From contig NIVC01000652.1 of NCBI GenBank assembly GCA_002269645.1, positions 186,001 through 250,000 of the forward strand: a DNA stretch of 64,000 bases. The letters are read 5' to 3'. The first letter of the stretch is position 1; every line of letters starts with the position of its first letter. Origin of the DNA: Macrostomum lignano (lineage: Eukaryota). The notes beneath the pieces are model-generated. The model had not been told where the DNA came from. It saw only the letters and a program-made list of their open reading frames with translations, and ran no database searches. The translations under genes were made by a program, and so were the position numbers. Positions 2,329-11,069 of the stretch are shown piece by piece.

Positions 2329-3108
2329 TGTGACAGGTGTTATTCCCCTGTCTTTGTGAACAATCCCACTGCTGACACTAACTGTGATAGGCCTTCTGGC
2401 TCTGTCTTTCTAAATTTCTAACTATTGATGCTAGTGTTTATTAAATATCCTACAAGCTGCCACCAAGTTGTTACAGGTTTTCAATTTTCTCTGCTGATAC
2501 TAAATTCTGCCTTTGGTATCTCTAACTGTTTCTTAGAATTTCATTTAAATATTCTGGTAGCGTCTTATGTATTAATCTGGTAGCGTTCTTAGTATATTAG
2601 CCTGGTAGCGTTCTTAGTATATTAGTCTGGTAGCGTTCTTAGTATATTAGCCTGGTAGCGTTCTTAGTATATTAGTCTGGTAGCGTTCTTAGTATATTAG
2701 TCTGGTAGCGTTCTTAGTATATTAGTCTGGTAGCGTTCTTAGTATATGGCCTGAGCGGTCTTACTGGTATATGTGCTTTCTCTCTCCAGTCTGGGCGTTA
2801 CCGAGATTAGAGGGTCACAGCGATCACTCTTAGTACTTTCTTTGCATGAATCCCTGATTCCCAACTCTCAATACCTCTTAAAAATAAGCAATGATCTGAG
2901 AATAAGTATTGAACAACGTTTTGAGCTTATAGCTATCGAACGAGTGTTCATTTTCCTACCTCCAACTTCGCTCCTATTTATACTATCTCAACTGCGTATA
3001 TTTATAACAAACGTAGAATATTAAGAATATTTTGCAAGTTAAAACAAAACATAGTTTTCGCGTGATTTTAGAAATAAGGTTTCCTAGAAAACAGTAACCG
3101 CTTCTACA
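2329..3108 (-). repeat. 3' LTR (780 bp)
   Basis: Direct repeat of 10365-11069. By eye it differs by one substitution (2553 region) and three extra 25-bp units. Confidence 0.95.
2553..2746. repeat. 25-bp tandem array in 3' LTR (7 full + 1 degenerate unit)
   Basis: Unit CTGGTAGCGTTCTTAGTATATTAG(T/C). Confidence 0.9.
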
Positions 3109-3109
3109 A

Positions 3110-3121
3110 CTTTCCTCCTCT
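3110..3121 (-). promoter_or_regulatory. Polypurine tract (PPT)
   Basis: Minus strand AGAGGAGGAAAG lies 1 nt before the TG of the 3' LTR. Confidence 0.85.
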
Positions 3122-3494
3122 TATCATGAATTTTGAATGAAAGCAATGCTACAGTGAAAAATTTATGAGTACATTTAACATAAAAATTGGAAGCTGAAAA
3201 TAAAACATATTTAGTACAAATGCTATTAAAGAAAACATAAAACATAGTACAACTGCTAAATCAGATAGTCAATATAGGTGCTTTGGGTGCTAAAGAACGA
3301 AATGCAGTGCATAGGTGAGCAACACACAATAGAAATAGACTGTTAATTGTCCACAAAAGTAGGCATATCAAAGAAAAATAGGCATAGTAAGGTTTTAAAG
3401 ACAATAGACATAGTAAAATTTAAAGAAAATAAGCATAGTAAAGTTTAAAGAAACTAGGCATAGCAGAAATATTAAATGTCAAAGTGTCAAAAGT

Positions 3495-4334
3495 TCAAAA
3501 GTCGCAATACCGGGGCAGGTCTCGATAGAATGGCCATCCGAGCTGCGAGAAGCACCATCGCAGCTCGATATTGACCAGCTGCCGCTGCGCCGGCCGGGCA
3601 TCCGCTTGCAATGTGCGCTGGAGACGTTCGGCGATCTCCTGCAGCACAGCCACAGCCTCGCGATGGTTAAAGTGCTCACGCAGAGTGCGCAGGTGAGGCC
3701 AAATCTGCGACCGCTGCGGCAGAGCCTCGTCTAGACGCAGAAAGGCGATCCTCAGAAGGTACTGTTGGAGGCTGTGCCGCGGGCGTTCGACCTCGGCGCC
3801 TCTGGTCTCGATGAGCTGGCGAACAATGGCGCGATGATCCTGCGAGTCTTCCTGCGGCGGCGGGCGCGCTGGTGGCGTACCTGGGCGAGATTGGCGAGCA
3901 TTCGATTGTCTGCGCCCACGAGACGGCGCTTCAACTGGGACGGCAAGCTGTATCGATCGGCCGCCAGCGCTATCCGCTTTCATGACACAAGAACGGATTG
4001 GCGCGGCCGCTTGTCGTTCTAGCAGGGCAGCCCGCTTCCTCTCTGGTTCGTTGGACTGACTCGAGGCGGCAGCAGATGATGAAGCGCTCGATCGCTTGGT
4101 GGCGGAATCCCCGCCTGGGGGCCTTGGGCGCGTTGGCTGCCTGAGGGGAGCCTCGTTCTCCTGCTGCTCTCGGGCTCGTCGCTCTCGGTCACGCTCTCGC
4201 TGCTCGCGCTCTCGCTCTTCACGCTCTCGCTCTTCGCGCTCTCGCTCTTCGCGCTCTCGCTCTTGTTCTTCGCTTGGATTGCCATCTTCCAAAAGGTCTT
4301 GCAGGAATTTGTCAATATCGTCGTTGTTGTCCAT
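3495..4334 (-). CDS. Retrotransposon accessory ORF3, 279 aa from first ATG, unknown function (not env)
   Basis: Open GC-rich ORF between integrase and the 3' LTR. ATG at 4334 (the track start at 4352 is GTG). Acidic N-terminus, (ER)n coiled coil, predicted helical C-terminal domain. No signal peptide or TM segment. Confidence 0.7.
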   Translation of the reverse strand: MDNNDDIDKFLQDLLEDGNPSEEQEREREEREREEREREEREREQRERDRERRAREQQENEAPLRQPTRPRPPGGDSATKRSSASSSAAASSQSNEPERKRAALLERQAAAPIRSCVMKADSAGGRSIQLAVPVEAPSRGRRQSNARQSRPGTPPARPPPQEDSQDHRAIVRQLIETRGAEVERPRHSLQQYLLRIAFLRLDEALPQRSQIWPHLRTLREHFNHREAVAVLQEIAERLQRTLQADARPAQRQLVNIELRWCFSQLGWPFYRDLPRYCDF

Positions 4335-4431
4335 CTTCGAATTACTCTGCACAGCTCTTAGTATTTAATCTTCGAATCGCTCTTCGGATGTGTGAAATAT
4401 GGGGGCCTGCTAGCGGTCAGGGGGTTTTGCA

Positions 4432-4437
4432 TTTATA
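4432..4437 (-). promoter_or_regulatory. Candidate TATA box for ORF3
   Basis: TATAAA on the minus strand about 100 nt upstream of the ORF3 ATG, within a short GC-rich block. Confidence 0.3.
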
Positions 4438-4743
4438 GGCTGGCGGCCGAAAAGCTGGACCGCATCATTGTGTTCCACGCGGGCCTCGAGTGGGGGGTGC
4501 TTGGGTTGGCAGATTTGACACTCAGATTTTTATGGATTTTCTTTAGATTTTTATAACTTTTTTTTTCGAGATTTTTTCTTGAGTAATATGTCATATGAAA
4601 GCTTACATTTAGCAGAATACTATGGTGTTTTCAGATTTGTTCTATGTACAACATGTCAATTTTTATAGGCAAATAACTATTATTAATATGAAATTTTAAC
4701 TAATTTACACTGGTTTCAATGGCAATTCGCTGACGTCATCACC

Positions 4744-6237
4744 CTATTGTTCCAAATATCGCGCGTAGCGCCTTCGGGGCACGAATCCGTTCACACCTTC
4801 TCCTTGCTGAGTCACTCTATTGCCTCGTGGTCTCAGATTATACCTTTCTACTGGCTGAGCTTCCTCCTCTAACTCTATTGCTCCTTCCTCTTCTGATGGC
4901 TCATCTGAGTCAGTCGCTCTCTCTGTGTTTTCACTGTTCAGTTCTTCATTTCCTTCGTTTTCACTCTGCGAATTAGGATCTGCGAACACTCTCCATTGAA
5001 TTCTGTCTTCTTCGTCTGAGCTTTCCTCCTCTAAAATTTGAACCTCTGGATTTTTATTAACTTCTTTTTGTCTATGGCAAATTCTTTTCTTTGGCTTTGG
5101 CTGTTCCTTCTTCTTAGTTTGTACTATTGCTGGTTCTAAATAATTATTAATTTCCTCTGGTAAATCAATTTCGGATTTCGGCACTGGAGTCAGATTATTT
5201 CTATGTACTAATAGTTTTTCTCCGCTCCTTTCGCCATTGATTTCTCTTTGCACACGGAACACTGTGTCTGATATCTTCGCAAGAACTCGATAGGCTGCTC
5301 TCTTCTTTCGATGAAACTTGTGGCTCTCCTCTTGGTGAAGTTGAGGGTTATTGATGAGAGCGAGACAGCCAACTGGCACATTTTTAGGCTGACGATTCTC
5401 AACTTCGTCCTCTTGCCTTTTCTCTCGCACCTTTTCGAGTTGTCTTCGCACAATTGCTTTTGTCTCCTCGATTCTCTTCGCATGATCCAGCACATAGCTA
5501 GGATAGTCTCGGTATAATCTTGGCCTTTTCACAATGCTATCTATTGGCAAATCTGCTTCTCTCCCGAATAGTAAGTAGTGTGGTGTGAACCCAGTAGTTT
5601 GATTAACACTGGTTCGCACAGCTACCAAAGCGGCGGGTATGAGCAGATCCCAATCTGAATGATCCTTTTCAATCAAACAGGTTACAATCGATTTAATTTG
5701 CTTGTTAAATCTTTCGACAAGCCCGTTACTCTGAGCATGGTAAGGCGTAGTGCAAGTATGCTTAATGCCATATAGGGTACAGAATGCCTGAAATTGGTGA
5801 CTTACAAAAGTCTTGCCATTATCAGTGTGTATCCATTGGCACTGGCCATACTCGCTGAAAATTCTCTCTTGTATCGTTTTGATAACAGTAGCGGATTTCT
5901 GGTTCCGAACCGGAAAAGCGAATGGGAACTTCGTTGTACTATCTACAACAGTAAGTACATATCGGTGTCCTCTTCTGCTTTCCTTTGATATTGGACCGAT
6001 CAAATCTATGTGCAGCCGATGGAATGGCTCACATATCGGAAAGGTCTGCACCGGTGCTCGTACTTTATTTCCGCTTTTACTTTCCAGACACGGGATGCAT
6101 TCTGCGATGTACTTTTCAACTGCAGTCACTAACCCTGGCCTCCAGAATCGGTCTCGGACTCGCTGTAGCGTCTTGTCCCGACCTAGGTGGCCTGCTAGCG
6201 GACTATCGTGCAGCTCTTTGAAACACATCTTTCTCAA
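4744..6237 (-). CDS. pol: Integrase region of pol (frameshifted relative to PR-RT-RH)
   Basis: HHCC zinc finger (HDSPLAGH...CIPC), DDE core (HIDLIGP, HTDNG, SNGLVERFN), acidic C-terminal tail ending RYNLRPR. There is no true ATG start; it continues pol after one extra base at about 6238-6245. Confidence 0.92.
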   Translation of the reverse strand: MRKMCFKELHDSPLAGHLGRDKTLQRVRDRFWRPGLVTAVEKYIAECIPCLESKSGNKVRAPVQTFPICEPFHRLHIDLIGPISKESRRGHRYVLTVVDSTTKFPFAFPVRNQKSATVIKTIQERIFSEYGQCQWIHTDNGKTFVSHQFQAFCTLYGIKHTCTTPYHAQSNGLVERFNKQIKSIVTCLIEKDHSDWDLLIPAALVAVRTSVNQTTGFTPHYLLFGREADLPIDSIVKRPRLYRDYPSYVLDHAKRIEETKAIVRRQLEKVREKRQEDEVENRQPKNVPVGCLALINNPQLHQEESHKFHRKKRAAYRVLAKISDTVFRVQREINGERSGEKLLVHRNNLTPVPKSEIDLPEEINNYLEPAIVQTKKKEQPKPKKRICHRQKEVNKNPEVQILEEESSDEEDRIQWRVFADPNSQSENEGNEELNSENTERATDSDEPSEEEGAIELEEEAQPVERYNLRPRGNRVTQQGEGVNGFVPRRRYARYLEQ

Positions 6238-9200
6238 TCTTCTCTGGCAATACTACTTTTCGTTTACCGTTTTCACTGACTGTCAGCATTTCATCTTCGA
6301 TTTTCATCTGCTCGTAGAACTTAACCATCTTCTTCAACTCTCCGGATGCATTTTCTGGTAACTTCGGCTCACGTACTTTCTTCTGCTTCCAGTCCATCAA
6401 GGTCCTTATAGAAGGATCAGCATGCTGCGCTGAAGTCAGCTGCTCTTTCTTCAATGGAACCGAGAGGTAATCTGTCAGAAGCTTTCTGCACACTGTCTCT
6501 TCCTCTTCGAAATAGTCTCTTGCATCTTCATAGATGTCATCATCATCTTCGAACTGATCACTGGCATCTTCGTATTCATCATCTGCGAATTCGTCTTCGG
6601 AATCTGATTCATACTCTTCTGTGAAGTCGGTCTGGCAACTCTGATCTTTCACGCTGCTAGTCACGACTTGTTTCACAGCGCTGGTTTCTATTGTCATCTT
6701 AGGAATTTCAGCCTCATTCTCTTTGATCTTAGCATCTTTCTGTTCAACTGGTGGTTCCGAGGGTCGCCGTGACAATCCATCTGCGTTGGAATGTTTGGCT
6801 CCACTGCGGTGCTCAATATCGTATTGAAACTCACTCAGTCTTTCAATCCACCTTCCAAGAATTCCTTGGGCTTCGGTCTGGCGCAATAACCATAGAATTG
6901 CCTTGTGGTCTGTGCGGGCCAGAAACCTTTTGCCGATCAGGTAAAATCGAAAGTGTTTCATGCCATCTACTAGCGCTAATAGCTCTTTTCTGGTAATCGG
7001 ATATCTTTTCTCAGACTCTTTCATTGCTCTGCTGAAGTAAGCAATGGGTCTCTCAACCCCGTCCGACTGTATTTGACCCAGGCAAGCACCAATTCGGTCT
7101 TCGCTTGCGTCGGTATCTAACACCATTCGAACATTTTCGTTCTCTGAGAACTCTGGGTACGCAAGTACTTCGGTCGATGTCATTCTCTGCTTCAACTGCT
7201 GGAAAGCCTCATCATGCTTCTTAGTCCACTTTTCCCTAAAGTTTTGAATACCTTTCTTAGTTAATTGAAATAGCGGATGCGCTGCCTCTGCGTAATTCTT
7301 TACAAATCTGCAGTAGTAGTTACACAACCCCAAGAAGCTTCGCAGTTCTTTGACCTCTTTCGGCGTAGGCCATGACTGTATCGCTTCGATCTTAGCTGGG
7401 TCTGTTCTAATCCCTTCTCTTCCTACGATATGCCCTAAGTACTTTAGCTCTTTCTGAAACAAGTTGCACTTTTTTGGTCTTAACTTTAGCCCTGCTGAGA
7501 TTAGTCTTTGAAATACTTCTTGCAGATGACCGAGATGATCTTCGAATTTCTCTGAGTATGTCACAATATCATCTATGTACGACATTGCGAATTTGTGCTG
7601 TATTCCCATCAGCACCAAATTCATGAGTCTCTGGAATGTACCAGGAGCGTTAGACAAGCCCTGTGCCATGACCTGATATTCGAACTGGCCTCTGGTAAGG
7701 GTGGAAAAGGCTGTCATAAATTTGTGCTCCTCTTTGATAGGTACCTGCCAGTATCCAGAGTTTAAATCTAGACTACTGAAGTACTTGCTTCCAGATAACT
7801 GAGCGAAAGTCTCTTGTATGTTCGGCAATGGATATGGGTAATAGTTCACTCTCGAGTTCAGGACCCTGAAGTCACTGACGATTCTTATGGATCCATCCTT
7901 CTTAGGAACTATCACTAGCGGCGTCGAATAAGTACTATAGCACGGTCGGATCAAGTTCTTAGCAAGCATGTCGTCAAGTTGCTCATCTACTTGCTTTTGC
8001 AGATGTGGTGGAATTCTGCGTGTTGGAATCCTGACCGGTGTAGTATCTTTTAGAGATATTTCATGCGTCACAAGATGGGTGAGACCCATGTCTTGGTTGG
8101 TCTGCGAAAATGCTTCTTTGTTCTTTTTTAGCAAATCGATCACTAGTCCTTTCTGTTCTGATGTTAGCTCTTCTCCTAAGTCTATCTCGCTTATCCAGCT
8201 GTACTCACTCTCTTCACTCTTCACTGTCCTAATTGCATCATCTGAACTGGCTTGACCTTTGCTGTTAATAGAGTAGGCCAGGCCTCCTGGCTTCAAGGGT
8301 TTGGCCACTCCAATCAGCGTAGATCTTGTCAGTCTGATATCGTCATTCTGTCGATTGATTATTTCCACTACTCCTGTTCCATCGTTCATGGTCACTAGAG
8401 TAGGAATCATCTCTAAGGAATTCCTCTTCGTAGTCACTTGGCCTCCAATGGTGTCAACGACCATTGGCGTTCCATAGTTGGCTTCTGATCCTTTAGTCAT
8501 TCTAACTGGAATTCGAAGAGCGCTATTCGCTGGTATAGTCACGCTGTTATGGCTGTAGATTCGGCAGACCCGTACGGGTAATTTTGTAAACTGAATCGGG
8601 ATGCAGGTCCCTTCTTTTAATACAAGCATTCCTCTGGAAAGGCTGATGCTGTCGCAGAAGTTCATGAAGAACTCCATCCCGAGTATGTCGTCACACTCGT
8701 GATTGCACAGCAGGAACTCTGTCTCAATCTCTATCTCTCCGAATCGTATTTTCGTTCTGACTTCTCCTTCAATTCGCACACTTGATCCGTCAAACGTAGT
8801 CACTCTTCGAGTAGTCAACTCAATTTCATCACTTCTGAACATCTTTTTCCACGTACTCTTGCTTAGGAAATTATGTCCAGCTCCTGTGTCTAACAGGAAG
8901 TAGACCTTTCGGTTTCTTAGCATTCCATTGACGACTGCTTCTCGTCCTTTTCTCTCCGTATCTTCTTCGAATTCTCTCTTCGAATGCTCATTCGGAATTA
9001 CTGTACTTTGTACTTTATTATTCGGCCTACTGTAGCTGGCAGACGCATGACTAGGTGCAAGCGGCGTATGTACACGAGGTGCAAAATTTTTATTTGGTTT
9101 TCTGTGAAATTTATTGAATTCGGCATGCGTTCTGCTGTTACTATACTGTCTGGCATTACTTCGATACGCATTATTTACAAATTCAGAGGCCTGAAATTCG

Positions 9201-9259
9201 CGATAACTGTTGCTAGAGGGACGTGGCCTCGCAAAGCGGCCCTCGCTACTCAGTTTCCC
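6203..9259 (-). CDS. pol: Pol: protease, reverse transcriptase, RNase H (expressed as Gag-Pol by -1 frameshift)
   Basis: LLDTGA protease motif, RT SYIDDIV, RNase H LDTDAS and ARTDHKA. I translated the frame upstream of the track start (8923) and it stays open through the gag stop to the slippery site. Confidence 0.93.
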   Translation of the reverse strand, partial: GKLSSEGRFARPRPSSNSYREFQASEFVNNAYRSNARQYSNSRTHAEFNKFHRKPNKNFAPRVHTPLAPSHASASYSRPNNKVQSTVIPNEHSKREFEEDTERKGREAVVNGMLRNRKVYFLLDTGAGHNFLSKSTWKKMFRSDEIELTTRRVTTFDGSSVRIEGEVRTKIRFGEIEIETEFLLCNHECDDILGMEFFMNFCDSISLSRGMLVLKEGTCIPIQFTKLPVRVCRIYSHNSVTIPANSALRIPVRMTKGSEANYGTPMVVDTIGGQVTTKRNSLEMIPTLVTMNDGTGVVEIINRQNDDIRLTRSTLIGVAKPLKPGGLAYSINSKGQASSDDAIRTVKSEESEYSWISEIDLGEELTSEQKGLVIDLLKKNKEAFSQTNQDMGLTHLVTHEISLKDTTPVRIPTRRIPPHLQKQVDEQLDDMLAKNLIRPCYSTYSTPLVIVPKKDGSIRIVSDFRVLNSRVNYYPYPLPNIQETFAQLSGSKYFSSLDLNSGYWQVPIKEEHKFMTAFSTLTRGQFEYQVMAQGLSNAPGTFQRLMNLVLMGIQHKFAMSYIDDIVTYSEKFEDHLGHLQEVFQRLISAGLKLRPKKCNLFQKELKYLGHIVGREGIRTDPAKIEAIQSWPTPKEVKELRSFLGLCNYYCRFVKNYAEAAHPLFQLTKKGIQNFREKWTKKHDEAFQQLKQRMTSTEVLAYPEFSENENVRMVLDTDASEDRIGACLGQIQSDGVERPIAYFSRAMKESEKRYPITRKELLALVDGMKHFRFYLIGKRFLARTDHKAILWLLRQTEAQGILGRWIERLSEFQYDIEHRSGAKHSNADGLSRRPSEPPVEQKDAKIKENEAEIPKMTIETSAVKQVVTSSVKDQSCQTDFTEEYESDSEDEFADDEYEDASDQFEDDDDIYEDARDYFEEEETVCRKLLTDYLSVPLKKEQLTSAQHADPSIRTLMDWKQKKVREPKLPENASGELKKMVKFYEQMKIEDEMLTVSENGKRKVVLPEKIEKDVFQRAAR

Positions 9260-9412
9260 TGCTGCTTCTGGTAGTTCATCACTCGCTGACCGTTTGGCCT
9301 AGCGCTCTGGCAATTCCTCGCCATGTGGCCAAGCTTCCCGCAATTGTAGCAGGCTCGAGGCTGCTGTTGTTGCTGTGGCTGCCTGTTGAATTGAGGCTGA
9401 CCGCGCCACACT

Positions 9413-9445
<33 letters not shown>

Positions 9446-10263
9446 GGCCGATATCTCGGCTGCTGCGGCGGTCCGGCGATCTGAGCATAGGTTTGATATT
9501 GGTTCTGCGGATGGTACTGCTGACGGCTGGCTCTTTTCTCTTCCATCAACTCGTCAATCGCCTTCTTCTGTTGCTCTAGCTCTGCTCTCTGCTTCTTGAT
9601 TATGTCCTCAAGCTTCTCCTGCTCTGCCTTCTGCTCACTCTCACCTTCGCCTTTGGCCATTCTCATGTTGACATTCTTGTGAGACATGTTCCACGCAGCC
9701 TCCATCCTTCTTAGCATTCTTCTAGCCTCTTGCAAATTGCCTGGCTGCGCAAAGATTAGCTTCTCACGGGTCTCTGACGGAATTCTGATTCCCTTGATGA
9801 ATTGCTCAACAATTTCTTCTTCCCTTTGCTCAACCGTCATATTTGGAAATGCACGCGATGCCAGCTCGATCAAACAGTCTGCGAAAGTCTCTACAGGCTC
9901 ATTTCTGCCTTGCATTCTTCCACGAAACTCCTCTCTGAATTCTGCGGAACTACCGATTCTTCCGAATCGCTCAATCAGTCGCTCTTTGAACTCTTCGTAT
10001 TCGAGATCCTCGGGCAGATTTAGGCGCTGTACCGCTGCGAATGCAGTGGACAGGTCCAGATTAGCTAGCAATTCCTGCTTCCTATGTTCCTCATCTATCC
10101 CTTCTACTTCACAGCGCTGATCGAAGGCTGTTAGCCAGATCCGAATGTCTTGCGTAGGTGTGAATTTCTGAATCTTAACGTGTCTCATCGGCCCTATCTC
10201 TAGTCGGTTTCGCAATTCTTCTGCCAGCATGGCGATGGCGTCATTAGCCTGATTCTGATTCAT
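9250..10263 (-). CDS. gag: Gag (337 aa)
   Basis: ATG at 10263. C-terminal CCHC knuckle CYNCGKLGHMARNC preceded by a Q-rich tract. Lies directly downstream of the PBS. Confidence 0.92.
9253..9259 (-). promoter_or_regulatory. -1 ribosomal frameshift slippery heptamer G GGA AAC
   Basis: Gag reads CAG GGA AAC TGA; the -1 frame GGG AAA CTG is the pol frame. A GC-rich GAGGG...CCCTC stem follows. Confidence 0.8.
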
Positions 10264-10351: not shown

Positions 10352-10362
10352 CGCTGCCACCA
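10352..10362 (-). promoter_or_regulatory. Primer binding site, tRNA-Leu(AAG/UAG)-type
   Basis: Minus strand TGGTGGCAGCG, 2 nt after the 5' LTR. Complementary to the ...CGCTGCCA-CCA end of metazoan tRNA-Leu(AAG/UAG) as recalled, not searched. Confidence 0.85.
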
Positions 10363-10364
10363 GC

Positions 10365-11069
10365 TGTGACAGGTGTTATTCCCCTGTCTTTGTGAACAAT
10401 CCCACTGCTGACACTAACTGTGATAGGCCTTCTGGCTCTGTCTTTCTAAATTTCTAACTATTGATGCTAGTGTTTATTAAATATCCTACAAGCTGCCACC
10501 AAGTTGTTACAGGTTTTCAATTTTCTCTGCTGATACTAAATTCTGCCTTTGGTATCTCTAACTGTTTCTTAGAATTTCATTTAAATATACTGGTAGCGTC
10601 TTATGTATTAATCTGGTAGCGTTCTTAGTATATTAGCCTGGTAGCGTTCTTAGTATATTAGTCTGGTAGCGTTCTTAGTATATTAGTCTGGTAGCGTTCT
10701 TAGTATATGGCCTGAGCGGTCTTACTGGTATATGTGCTTTCTCTCTCCAGTCTGGGCGTTACCGAGATTAGAGGGTCACAGCGATCACTCTTAGTACTTT
10801 CTTTGCATGAATCCCTGATTCCCAACTCTCAATACCTCTTAAAAATAAGCAATGATCTGAGAATAAGTATTGAACAACGTTTTGAGCTTATAGCTATCGA
10901 ACGAGTGTTCATTTTCCTACCTCCAACTTCGCTCCTATTTATACTATCTCAACTGCGTATATTTATAACAAACGTAGAATATTAAGAATATTTTGCAAGT
11001 TAAAACAAAACATAGTTTTCGCGTGATTTTAGAAATAAGGTTTCCTAGAAAACAGTAACCGCTTCTACA
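10365..11069 (-). repeat. 5' LTR (705 bp)
   Basis: TG...CA ends. 4 full + 1 degenerate 25-bp units. Minus-strand TATAAA near 10960-10966 and AATAAA near 10473-10478. Confidence 0.95.

Follow-up and report, generated by a model that had tools for sequence, protein, structure and literature searches.

Element-encoded regulators are rare among animal LTR retrotransposons. The systems closest to the gene described here, so far as the available portions of the respective papers go, each match it in part. Bdelloid rotifer LTR retrotransposons are likewise invertebrate Ty3/gypsy elements whose third gene is modular, family-specific and not env, but their ORF3s are recognisable captured enzymes (a GDSL esterase, a DEDDy exonuclease), whereas the Macrostomum lignano ORF3 has no known domain and, unlike them, has a promoter motif of the histone H1 type (PMC5408684). 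Foamy virus Tas/Bel1 resembles ORF3 in size, in its place near the 3′ LTR and, putatively, in its internal promoter and an activation-like segment; Tas, however, is a tested DNA-binding transactivator of an env-bearing retrovirus with its activation domain at the C-terminus, whereas the acidic helix of ORF3 is N-terminal, the two proteins show no homology, and no element common to internal promoter and LTR was found for ORF3 (PMC13220597). CERV of the C. elegans element Cer1 is another novel accessory protein that an invertebrate Ty3/gypsy element encodes, and it is nuclear, but it exports RNA and is made from a spliced mRNA, whereas ORF3 has neither detected similarity to it nor a supported splice (PMC10309623). 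The VANC proteins of VANDAL elements are extra element-encoded proteins that are diverse between relatives and linked to tandem-repeat motifs; they belong to plant DNA transposons in a DNA-methylation context and their binding has been demonstrated, whereas ORF3 is known from sequence (PMC5735166). Finally, the sORF2/FAST proteins of the MDG1 group are accessory ORFs of env-less elements, sometimes encoded past pol, but they are small membrane fusogens (10.1101/2025.03.14.642691), and ORF3 has no transmembrane (TM) helix.

On the host side, the H1 box and H4 box (PMC6027317), Cramp1 (10.1101/2025.02.07.636160) and Hinfp (PMC12127037) offer a parallel in H1-specific promoter control that is tied to transposon silencing. 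According to the available portions of these papers, H1 acts as a transposon silencer in fly and mouse, Cramp1 drives H1 transcription (10.1101/2025.02.07.636160) and transposons are derepressed on Hinfp loss (PMC12127037). Neither the M. lignano motif nor a binder of it is described in the literature examined, and GGTCC is missing upstream of the 16 M. lignano H4 loci surveyed. A paper on M. lignano LTR elements, PMC12801592, lists the named Ty3/gypsy clades Gmr1/Osvaldo, CsRN1 and Mag and describes working transgenesis and LTR reporters for this animal; its available portions contain none of the words ‘ORF’, ‘accessory’ and ‘non-autonomous’. The gene ids of five ORF3-related records are absent from the searched parts of the supplements of PMC12801592 and PMC5730564, and we found no paper on the ORF3 family or its motif in the full-text literature, although an earlier classification of M. 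lignano LTR elements may mention the ORF. Non-env ORF3s as such are known already; the ORF3 protein family, its H1-type promoter and the trade of its cassette are undescribed in the literature examined.

The window, by which we mean the whole 64,000-nt stretch of M. lignano contig NIVC01000652.1 that was analysed, contains the carrier of ORF3, which is a Ty3/gypsy LTR retrotransposon with LTRs, primer binding site, polypurine tract, gag, PR-RT-RH-IN and target duplication (Table 1). Its LTRs differ by 1 mismatch in 705 aligned nt plus a 75-nt difference in repeat number, and a 4-bp target duplication (AAAA) flanks the element, indicating a recent insertion. Its RT matches a protein record named Macrostomum lignano at 100% identity. 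Pol of this copy is made up of two frames, with the break near 6200-6230. ORF3 is co-oriented with gag and pol (3495..4334, minus strand), beginning 410 nt past the integrase stop and ending ~390 nt before the 3′ LTR. The first-pass annotation had described it as an intact sense-strand ORF of 279 aa, clearly richer in GC than pol and than its flanks, and both statements hold: 0/2000 shuffled versions of the region reached the length of ORF3, and its GC content is 0.62, compared with 0.44 in each of the PR-RT-RH and integrase portions and 0.29 and 0.39 in the two flanks (GC3 0.63 vs 0.48).

Table 1. Features of the ORF3-bearing element, in element order; positions are those of the window.
Feature	Coordinates	Strand	Remarks
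5′ LTR	10365..11069	(-)	
Primer binding site TGGTGGCAGCG	10352..10362	(-)	which we take to be of the tRNA-Leu type
gag, 337 aa, CCHC knuckle	9250..10263	(-)	
Protease-RT-RNase H frame	6203..9298	(-)	
Integrase portion of pol	4744..6228	(-)	
TGTCA box	4508..4520	(-)	upstream of the 21-nt motif
21-nt motif GAACACAATGATGCGGTCCAG	4455..4475	(-)	common to host histone H1 promoters
TATA box of putative internal promoter, TATAAA	4432..4437	(-)	103 nt before ORF3 ATG
Initiator-like CATATTTCAC	4392..4401	(-)	~30 nt past TATA; putative start region
TGTGCAG	4347..4353	(-)	unconserved, probably no acceptor
Acidic amphipathic helix, aa 4-16, DDIDKFLQDLL	4287..4325	(-)	
(ER)n coil, low-complexity linker	4158..4277	(-)	lineage-specific
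Conserved linear motif EAPLRQPTRP	4125..4154	(-)	PxRxxTRP in distant lineages
Conserved basic motif and short helix KRAALL..QA.AP	3999..4043	(-)	
C-terminal five-helix domain, aa 166-279	3498..3839	(-)	predicted, AlphaFold2
Polypurine tract	3110..3122	(-)	
3′ LTR	2329..3108	(-)	U3 with TATA 2974-2982, TTCnnnGAA 3081-3089 and a site at 3055-3062 (-) that we presume to be E2F-like

ORF3 belongs to a large family. Its C-terminal domain has at least 149 matches in the M. lignano genome, from 100% down to 29% identity (150 of 269 candidates were scored), and a distant member used as query finds many further ones. Sixty 10-kb loci were retrieved, selected for diversity but with open frames preferred, a preference that overstates the intact fraction of the family; an integrase match lies upstream in 52, RT only in 1, no element gene in 4, and 3 hold a gene for the domain by itself. 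Word-based protein searches with ORF3 returned no match, which says little as known relatives exist, while a profile-based search against 1.84 billion proteins returned eight: five named M. lignano protein records, one unnamed Logan protein of ORF3 architecture and two weak bacterial repeat proteins. That several relatives have named records is a weak hint of expression. Stops or frameshifts interrupt many genomic copies, as expected for old insertions. The family evolves under purifying selection, with a median dN/dS of 0.32 over the 55 unsaturated pairs among 276 non-independent ones and with the protein kept between lineages whose synonymous sites are saturated. Between the window and locus L083 the domain has a pS of 0.76 and a pN of 0.11, and the N-terminal part a dN/dS of 0.14; the window and L082 differ by 15 synonymous and 7 non-synonymous changes; one close pair gives a domain dN/dS of 1.2, on 5 changes. 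No positive selection is seen in pairwise dN/dS, where the divergence is old and purifying.

Full-length members share one layout, in which an acidic amphipathic helix is followed by a variable low-complexity linker, the PxRxxTRP motif, a KR/R-x-x-LL-x-x-QA motif, a second linker and a domain of ~115 aa. The acidic N-terminus DDIDKFLQDLLED, the (ER)n run and the basic patch ERKR (aa 98-101) that had been described in ORF3 are all there, as is the richness of its C-terminal part in L, W and R (32% over aa 166-279). The acidic helix is kept throughout the family with its L/F/I residues, P/Q/A-rich repeats replace the (ER)n coil in other members, and the basic motif KRAALL..QA.AP looks NLS-like. 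AlphaFold2 predicts the C-terminal domain as a five-helix bundle (pLDDT 87) next to disordered linkers and with strands absent; D202, P206 and W260 of this domain are invariant across 36 members. Searches of several kinds found no relative of known fold. Pfam holds nothing significant for ORF3 or for 25 domain members, and a PDB profile search with the domain gave no match (best E 0.41-4.3). With the predicted structure, Foldseek brought out no known fold (best E 0.39 in PDB and 0.41 among viral models in BFVD) and VIA-align returned generic bundles only (best Z 7.7-7.8). An Atlas search with the homologue P0122 gave no usable feature match, its structure rows lying below the bar, and the ORF3 profile reached a probability under 1% against H1 and against Gag. 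Similarity to a known DNA- or RNA-binding fold was found neither in sequence nor in predicted-structure searches. The domain may be of an unrecognised helical kind, although a missing fold match is no proof of novelty.

These data also bear on what ORF3 is not. As had been claimed, it lacks a signal peptide and TM segment, its top 19-residue hydropathy being 0.59, and the same is true of all 24 members surveyed (maxima 0.59-1.11), which have 1-5 Cys and 0-2 sequons. Three candidate identities were rejected: env, for want of a signal peptide and C-terminal TM anchor in the 24 members, the lack of any Pfam, PDB or BFVD match saying little by itself but the model being a small all-helical bundle; a FAST/sORF2 fusogen, whose single TM helix is absent by hydropathy from the same 24; and a chromodomain protein, given no Pfam Chromo match in 25 members and a predicted domain free of strands. 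The earlier description of ORF3 as a non-env accessory gene stands.

Upstream of ORF3, the window’s clade keeps a 21-nt motif despite saturated synonymous sites. Variant 1, GAACAC(A/G)ANGATGCGGTCCAG, is nearly invariant there and occurs in 14 of the 17 members, while 2 carry variant 2, GCTTCGAAGAGGTCCAG. In the sister clade, which makes up 19 of the 36 aligned members and has a protein of the same kind, neither variant was found (0/19), so the link to H1 set out below belongs to one clade and not to ORF3 function as such. A TATA-like box stands 72-111 nt before the ATG in 12/24 ORF3 lineages; a clear TATA is absent upstream of ORF3 in 12/24, among them each of the 7 lineages in the most distant group, and CCAAT boxes are found in many other lineages. 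The candidate promoter that the first-pass annotation had assigned to ORF3 is very likely real and internal: from the upstream sequence, the motif and TATA box very probably form an active internal promoter of ORF3. Of the two signals it had named, TATAAA and TGTGCAG, both are present, but the latter is probably no splice acceptor because it is not conserved; it is limited to the window’s own sub-lineage and lacks a pyrimidine tract. A peptide, EHEDAVQF, that two gene models place upstream was discarded as the promoter motif read in frame, a frame that is not kept.

The same motif marks host histone H1 genes. Variant 1 has 444 exact matches in the M. lignano genome vs 0 for a reversed control, and two lone matches of the motif lie in front of H1 genes. 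Among 15 H1 loci found, 9 (three paralog groups) carry variant 1 and 3 carry variant 2 twice; the 3 divergent ones have neither variant upstream. Upstream of core histone genes, GGTCC was found in 0/30 for H3 (the 30 top-ranking of 94 core-histone matches) and 0/16 for H4. Three H1 groups have the TGTCA box at a similar position, as do several ORF3 lineages, and the window’s promoter matches one H1 promoter over ~30 nt. Outside the motif, homology between ORF3 and H1 promoters does not rise above shuffles, leaving capture of a whole H1 promoter unsupported.

Since the motif upstream of ORF3 is an H1-promoter motif, ORF3 and H1 are likely co-activated. A host H1-gene factor probably binds the motif, to judge from its recurrence at both kinds of gene, and the simplest reading is that it reads both variants; a Hinfp- or Cramp1-like protein is a putative binder. 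We take the GGTCC core to resemble the H4-box/HiNF-P site and the ACACA part presumably resembles the H1 AC box. The variant-2 ORF3 lineage nests within the variant-1 clade, suggesting that it swapped one H1 motif for the other. Variant-2 H1 genes end in a hairpin that by eye is like the histone stem-loop, and none was found in the 150 nt examined at variant-1 H1 gene ends. By a hand tally, 38 of 95 variant-2 sites in the genome lie directly upstream of ORF3 matches, 6 in three H1 promoters, 41 in four arrays, 2 in a similar doublet where a contig ends and 8 elsewhere.

Several side observations concern the motif and its host genes. The M. lignano genome holds at least four H1 paralog groups (L225-L236), one using variant 2 and three using variant 1. 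The 8 variant-2 sites elsewhere (L270-L277), several of which occur as tandem pairs, belong neither to elements nor to H1 genes and may indicate further genes controlled by that factor. Both variants also recur as the invariant core of numerous tandem arrays on many contigs (L101-L108, L110, L121, L145, L208, L278, L280-L282); their spacers are unrelated and their periods span 26-45 nt, which suggests independent expansions of one binding site. The motif suggests that flatworm H1 genes have a control element not described before, which would have seeded many tandem arrays.

We give a probability of roughly 0.45 to the reading, taken as a whole chain, that ORF3 is an H1-coupled nuclear accessory protein likely boosting or de-silencing transcription of its own element. 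The internal promoter would be read by the host’s H1-activating factor, and a counter-measure would be made in the cells and at the times of host H1 increase. The KRAALL..QA.AP motif would import the protein into the nucleus, where the helical domain would dock at the element, on chromatin itself or on one of its proteins, and the acidic amphipathic helix would recruit co-activators, and transcription of the element would be raised or de-silenced. A transactivator or silencing suppressor is our leading guess, drawn from protein anatomy and promoter context. From the accessory-factor interpretation offered earlier, a real, selected, non-env gene has survived; the splice acceptor and the suggestion of a captured host gene have not, with no host parent of ORF3 in any search (protein, profile, Pfam).

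The H1-coupled reading is weakened by the sister clade lacking the motif, by the 12/24 lineages that have no clear TATA, by the lack of resemblance between the ORF3 domain and any known nucleic-acid-binding fold, and because the U3s already hold sites like those of host factors and may need no transactivator. TTCnnnGAA is kept in the U3 of 9/24 divergent rows (~1 expected), E2F-like sites in 7/24 and TTTGTTT(T/A)AA in 17/24, in a comparison whose U3 start is mis-set in 10/24 rows; the factor names, E2F-like included, are our assumption. Internal promoter and U3 have 1.38 8-mers in common within the same lineage vs 1.70 between different lineages, and this lack of excess gives no sign of a common response element, although dissimilar elements would escape such a test and the same 10/24 mis-set starts apply. 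The 21-nt motif is absent from the LTR, and heat-shock elements occur in 0 of 34 LTRs examined. The LTR also contains a 25-nt tandem repeat (window ~2550-2750 and 10570-10710) whose unit and copy number depend on the lineage; a CGCTAC core is common to these repeats in the window’s clade.

An alternative that we regard as unlikely, if the least so, is that ORF3 acts after transcription, through Rev- or CERV-like export or protection of genomic RNA or by giving particle or DNA access to the nucleus. Its Arg-rich helical domain and basic motif would suit such a role, the acidic Leu-rich helix could serve as an export signal, and ORF3 is retained in elements without pol, which depend on packaging in trans. 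Pol is missing from 15 of the 33 fetched elements in which an LTR pair was found; these 15 have near-identical LTRs and target duplications. Among elements with LTRs ≥99% identical a full-length ORF3 is found in 10/13 pol-less and 9/11 autonomous ones, in a biased sample. CERV is a precedent, but one made from spliced mRNA, so far as the available part of that paper goes (PMC10309623), and there is no evident splice in the ORF3 element that would make export a problem. Contigs from four putative RNA runs (two studies) span the element in full; transcript starts cannot be read from them, and they contain no joint into ORF3, although contigs cannot prove that none exists. The missing match to an RNA-binding fold also counts against export.

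The pol-less partners encode a distinct Gag-like ORF, 190-197 aa where complete, which forms one clade (100/100) in a tree of 12 rows, 3 others being omitted because the ORF was absent, short or partial. As a separate observation, this conserved protein lies just past the 5′ LTR (L061, L064-L066, L070, L083-L088, L098), has a hydrophobic stretch and a CxxC..HxC end and has no Pfam match; its possible roles are those of a packaging adaptor or of a truncated Gag with restriction-like action. The 3′ halves of pol-less elements match different autonomous elements at 95-97% (L082/window, L066/L067, L072/L091, L087/L063), from which it follows that ORF3 and U3 move together between backbones, although adjacency by itself can suffice to explain their joint travel. 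L062, L067, L071 and L089 have RTs that are 100% identical, with 0-2% four-fold-site differences, and ORF3 domains that are only 46-76% identical.

A host locus holds a domain-only derivative of ORF3. A gene for the domain alone (L180:6213-6566, L181, L182; NCBI Mlig026206, M. lignano) is present three times, with flanks 95-98% alike over 7 kb, and no LTR, gag or pol lies within the 10 kb fetched around it. Its protein, 118-119 aa and ~40% identical to the helical domain of ORF3, is without acidic helix, basic motif or final GWP tail, and the gene keeps motif, TATA and initiator in surrounding DNA that is ~70% alike. It is open in 3/3 copies, which differ by 4 synonymous and 2 conservative changes, and on these few changes its domestication is plausible.

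The contrast between identical RTs and divergent domains, together with the host-locus derivative and the short conserved linear motifs within disordered linkers, would also be compatible with ORF3 as a protein-binding adaptor directed against the host cell or rival elements, its cassette types reflecting an arms race over a cell-cycle push, the degradation of a defence protein or the exclusion of competitors. We think this rather improbable, as positive selection is not seen in ORF3 and no adaptor fold is prominent among the structural matches. More doubtful still is that ORF3 itself binds the motif, autoregulating like Tas and sitting on H1 promoters, where it would tamper with H1 supply, the arrays being decoys or expanded targets. 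The single variant-2 lineage does have a changed form of a conserved loop as well, RSDMRQRYPQ instead of RLDxxLPQR, and the motif arrays recall the VANC targets that evolve as tandem repeats, as the available part of PMC5735166 describes; yet sister-clade proteins without the motif have the same loop, the motif is missing from the LTR, and its retention in four H1 paralog groups makes an old host factor simpler. We consider it very improbable that ORF3 represents a decayed env or a host gene that was captured, or is a passenger left open only by recent amplification, in spite of its env-slot position, its GC and GC3 unlike those of pol and the many interrupted copies, in view of the missing signal peptide and TM helix, the few Cys and sequons in 24 members, the lack of a host parent among 1.84 billion representatives, the dissimilarity to H1 and Gag, and a protein conserved while synonymous sites are saturated.

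Extending the H1-coupled reading, a bolder scenario, improbable in its entirety, would have a retrotransposon clade bring its anti-silencing gene under the host’s H1 defence circuit through copied H1 promoter elements, including a switch between the variants of the polyadenylated and the stem-loop H1 genes; the cassette would be traded via pol-less partners, and the host would have domesticated a domain-only copy devoid of the activation segment as a dominant-negative brake. ORF3 may bear on how LTR retrotransposons evade chromatin silencing in stem cells, and its study has yielded a new protein family, a motif common to H1 genes, a cassette-trading partner lineage and a candidate domesticated derivative. 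Two further features of the window may be recorded. Positions 11500-56500 are dense in unrelated minisatellites with periods of 8-60 nt, none of which contains the motif, and positions 1368-1880 hold a 96-nt inverted repeat (85%, arms 321 nt apart) with the look of a small MITE.
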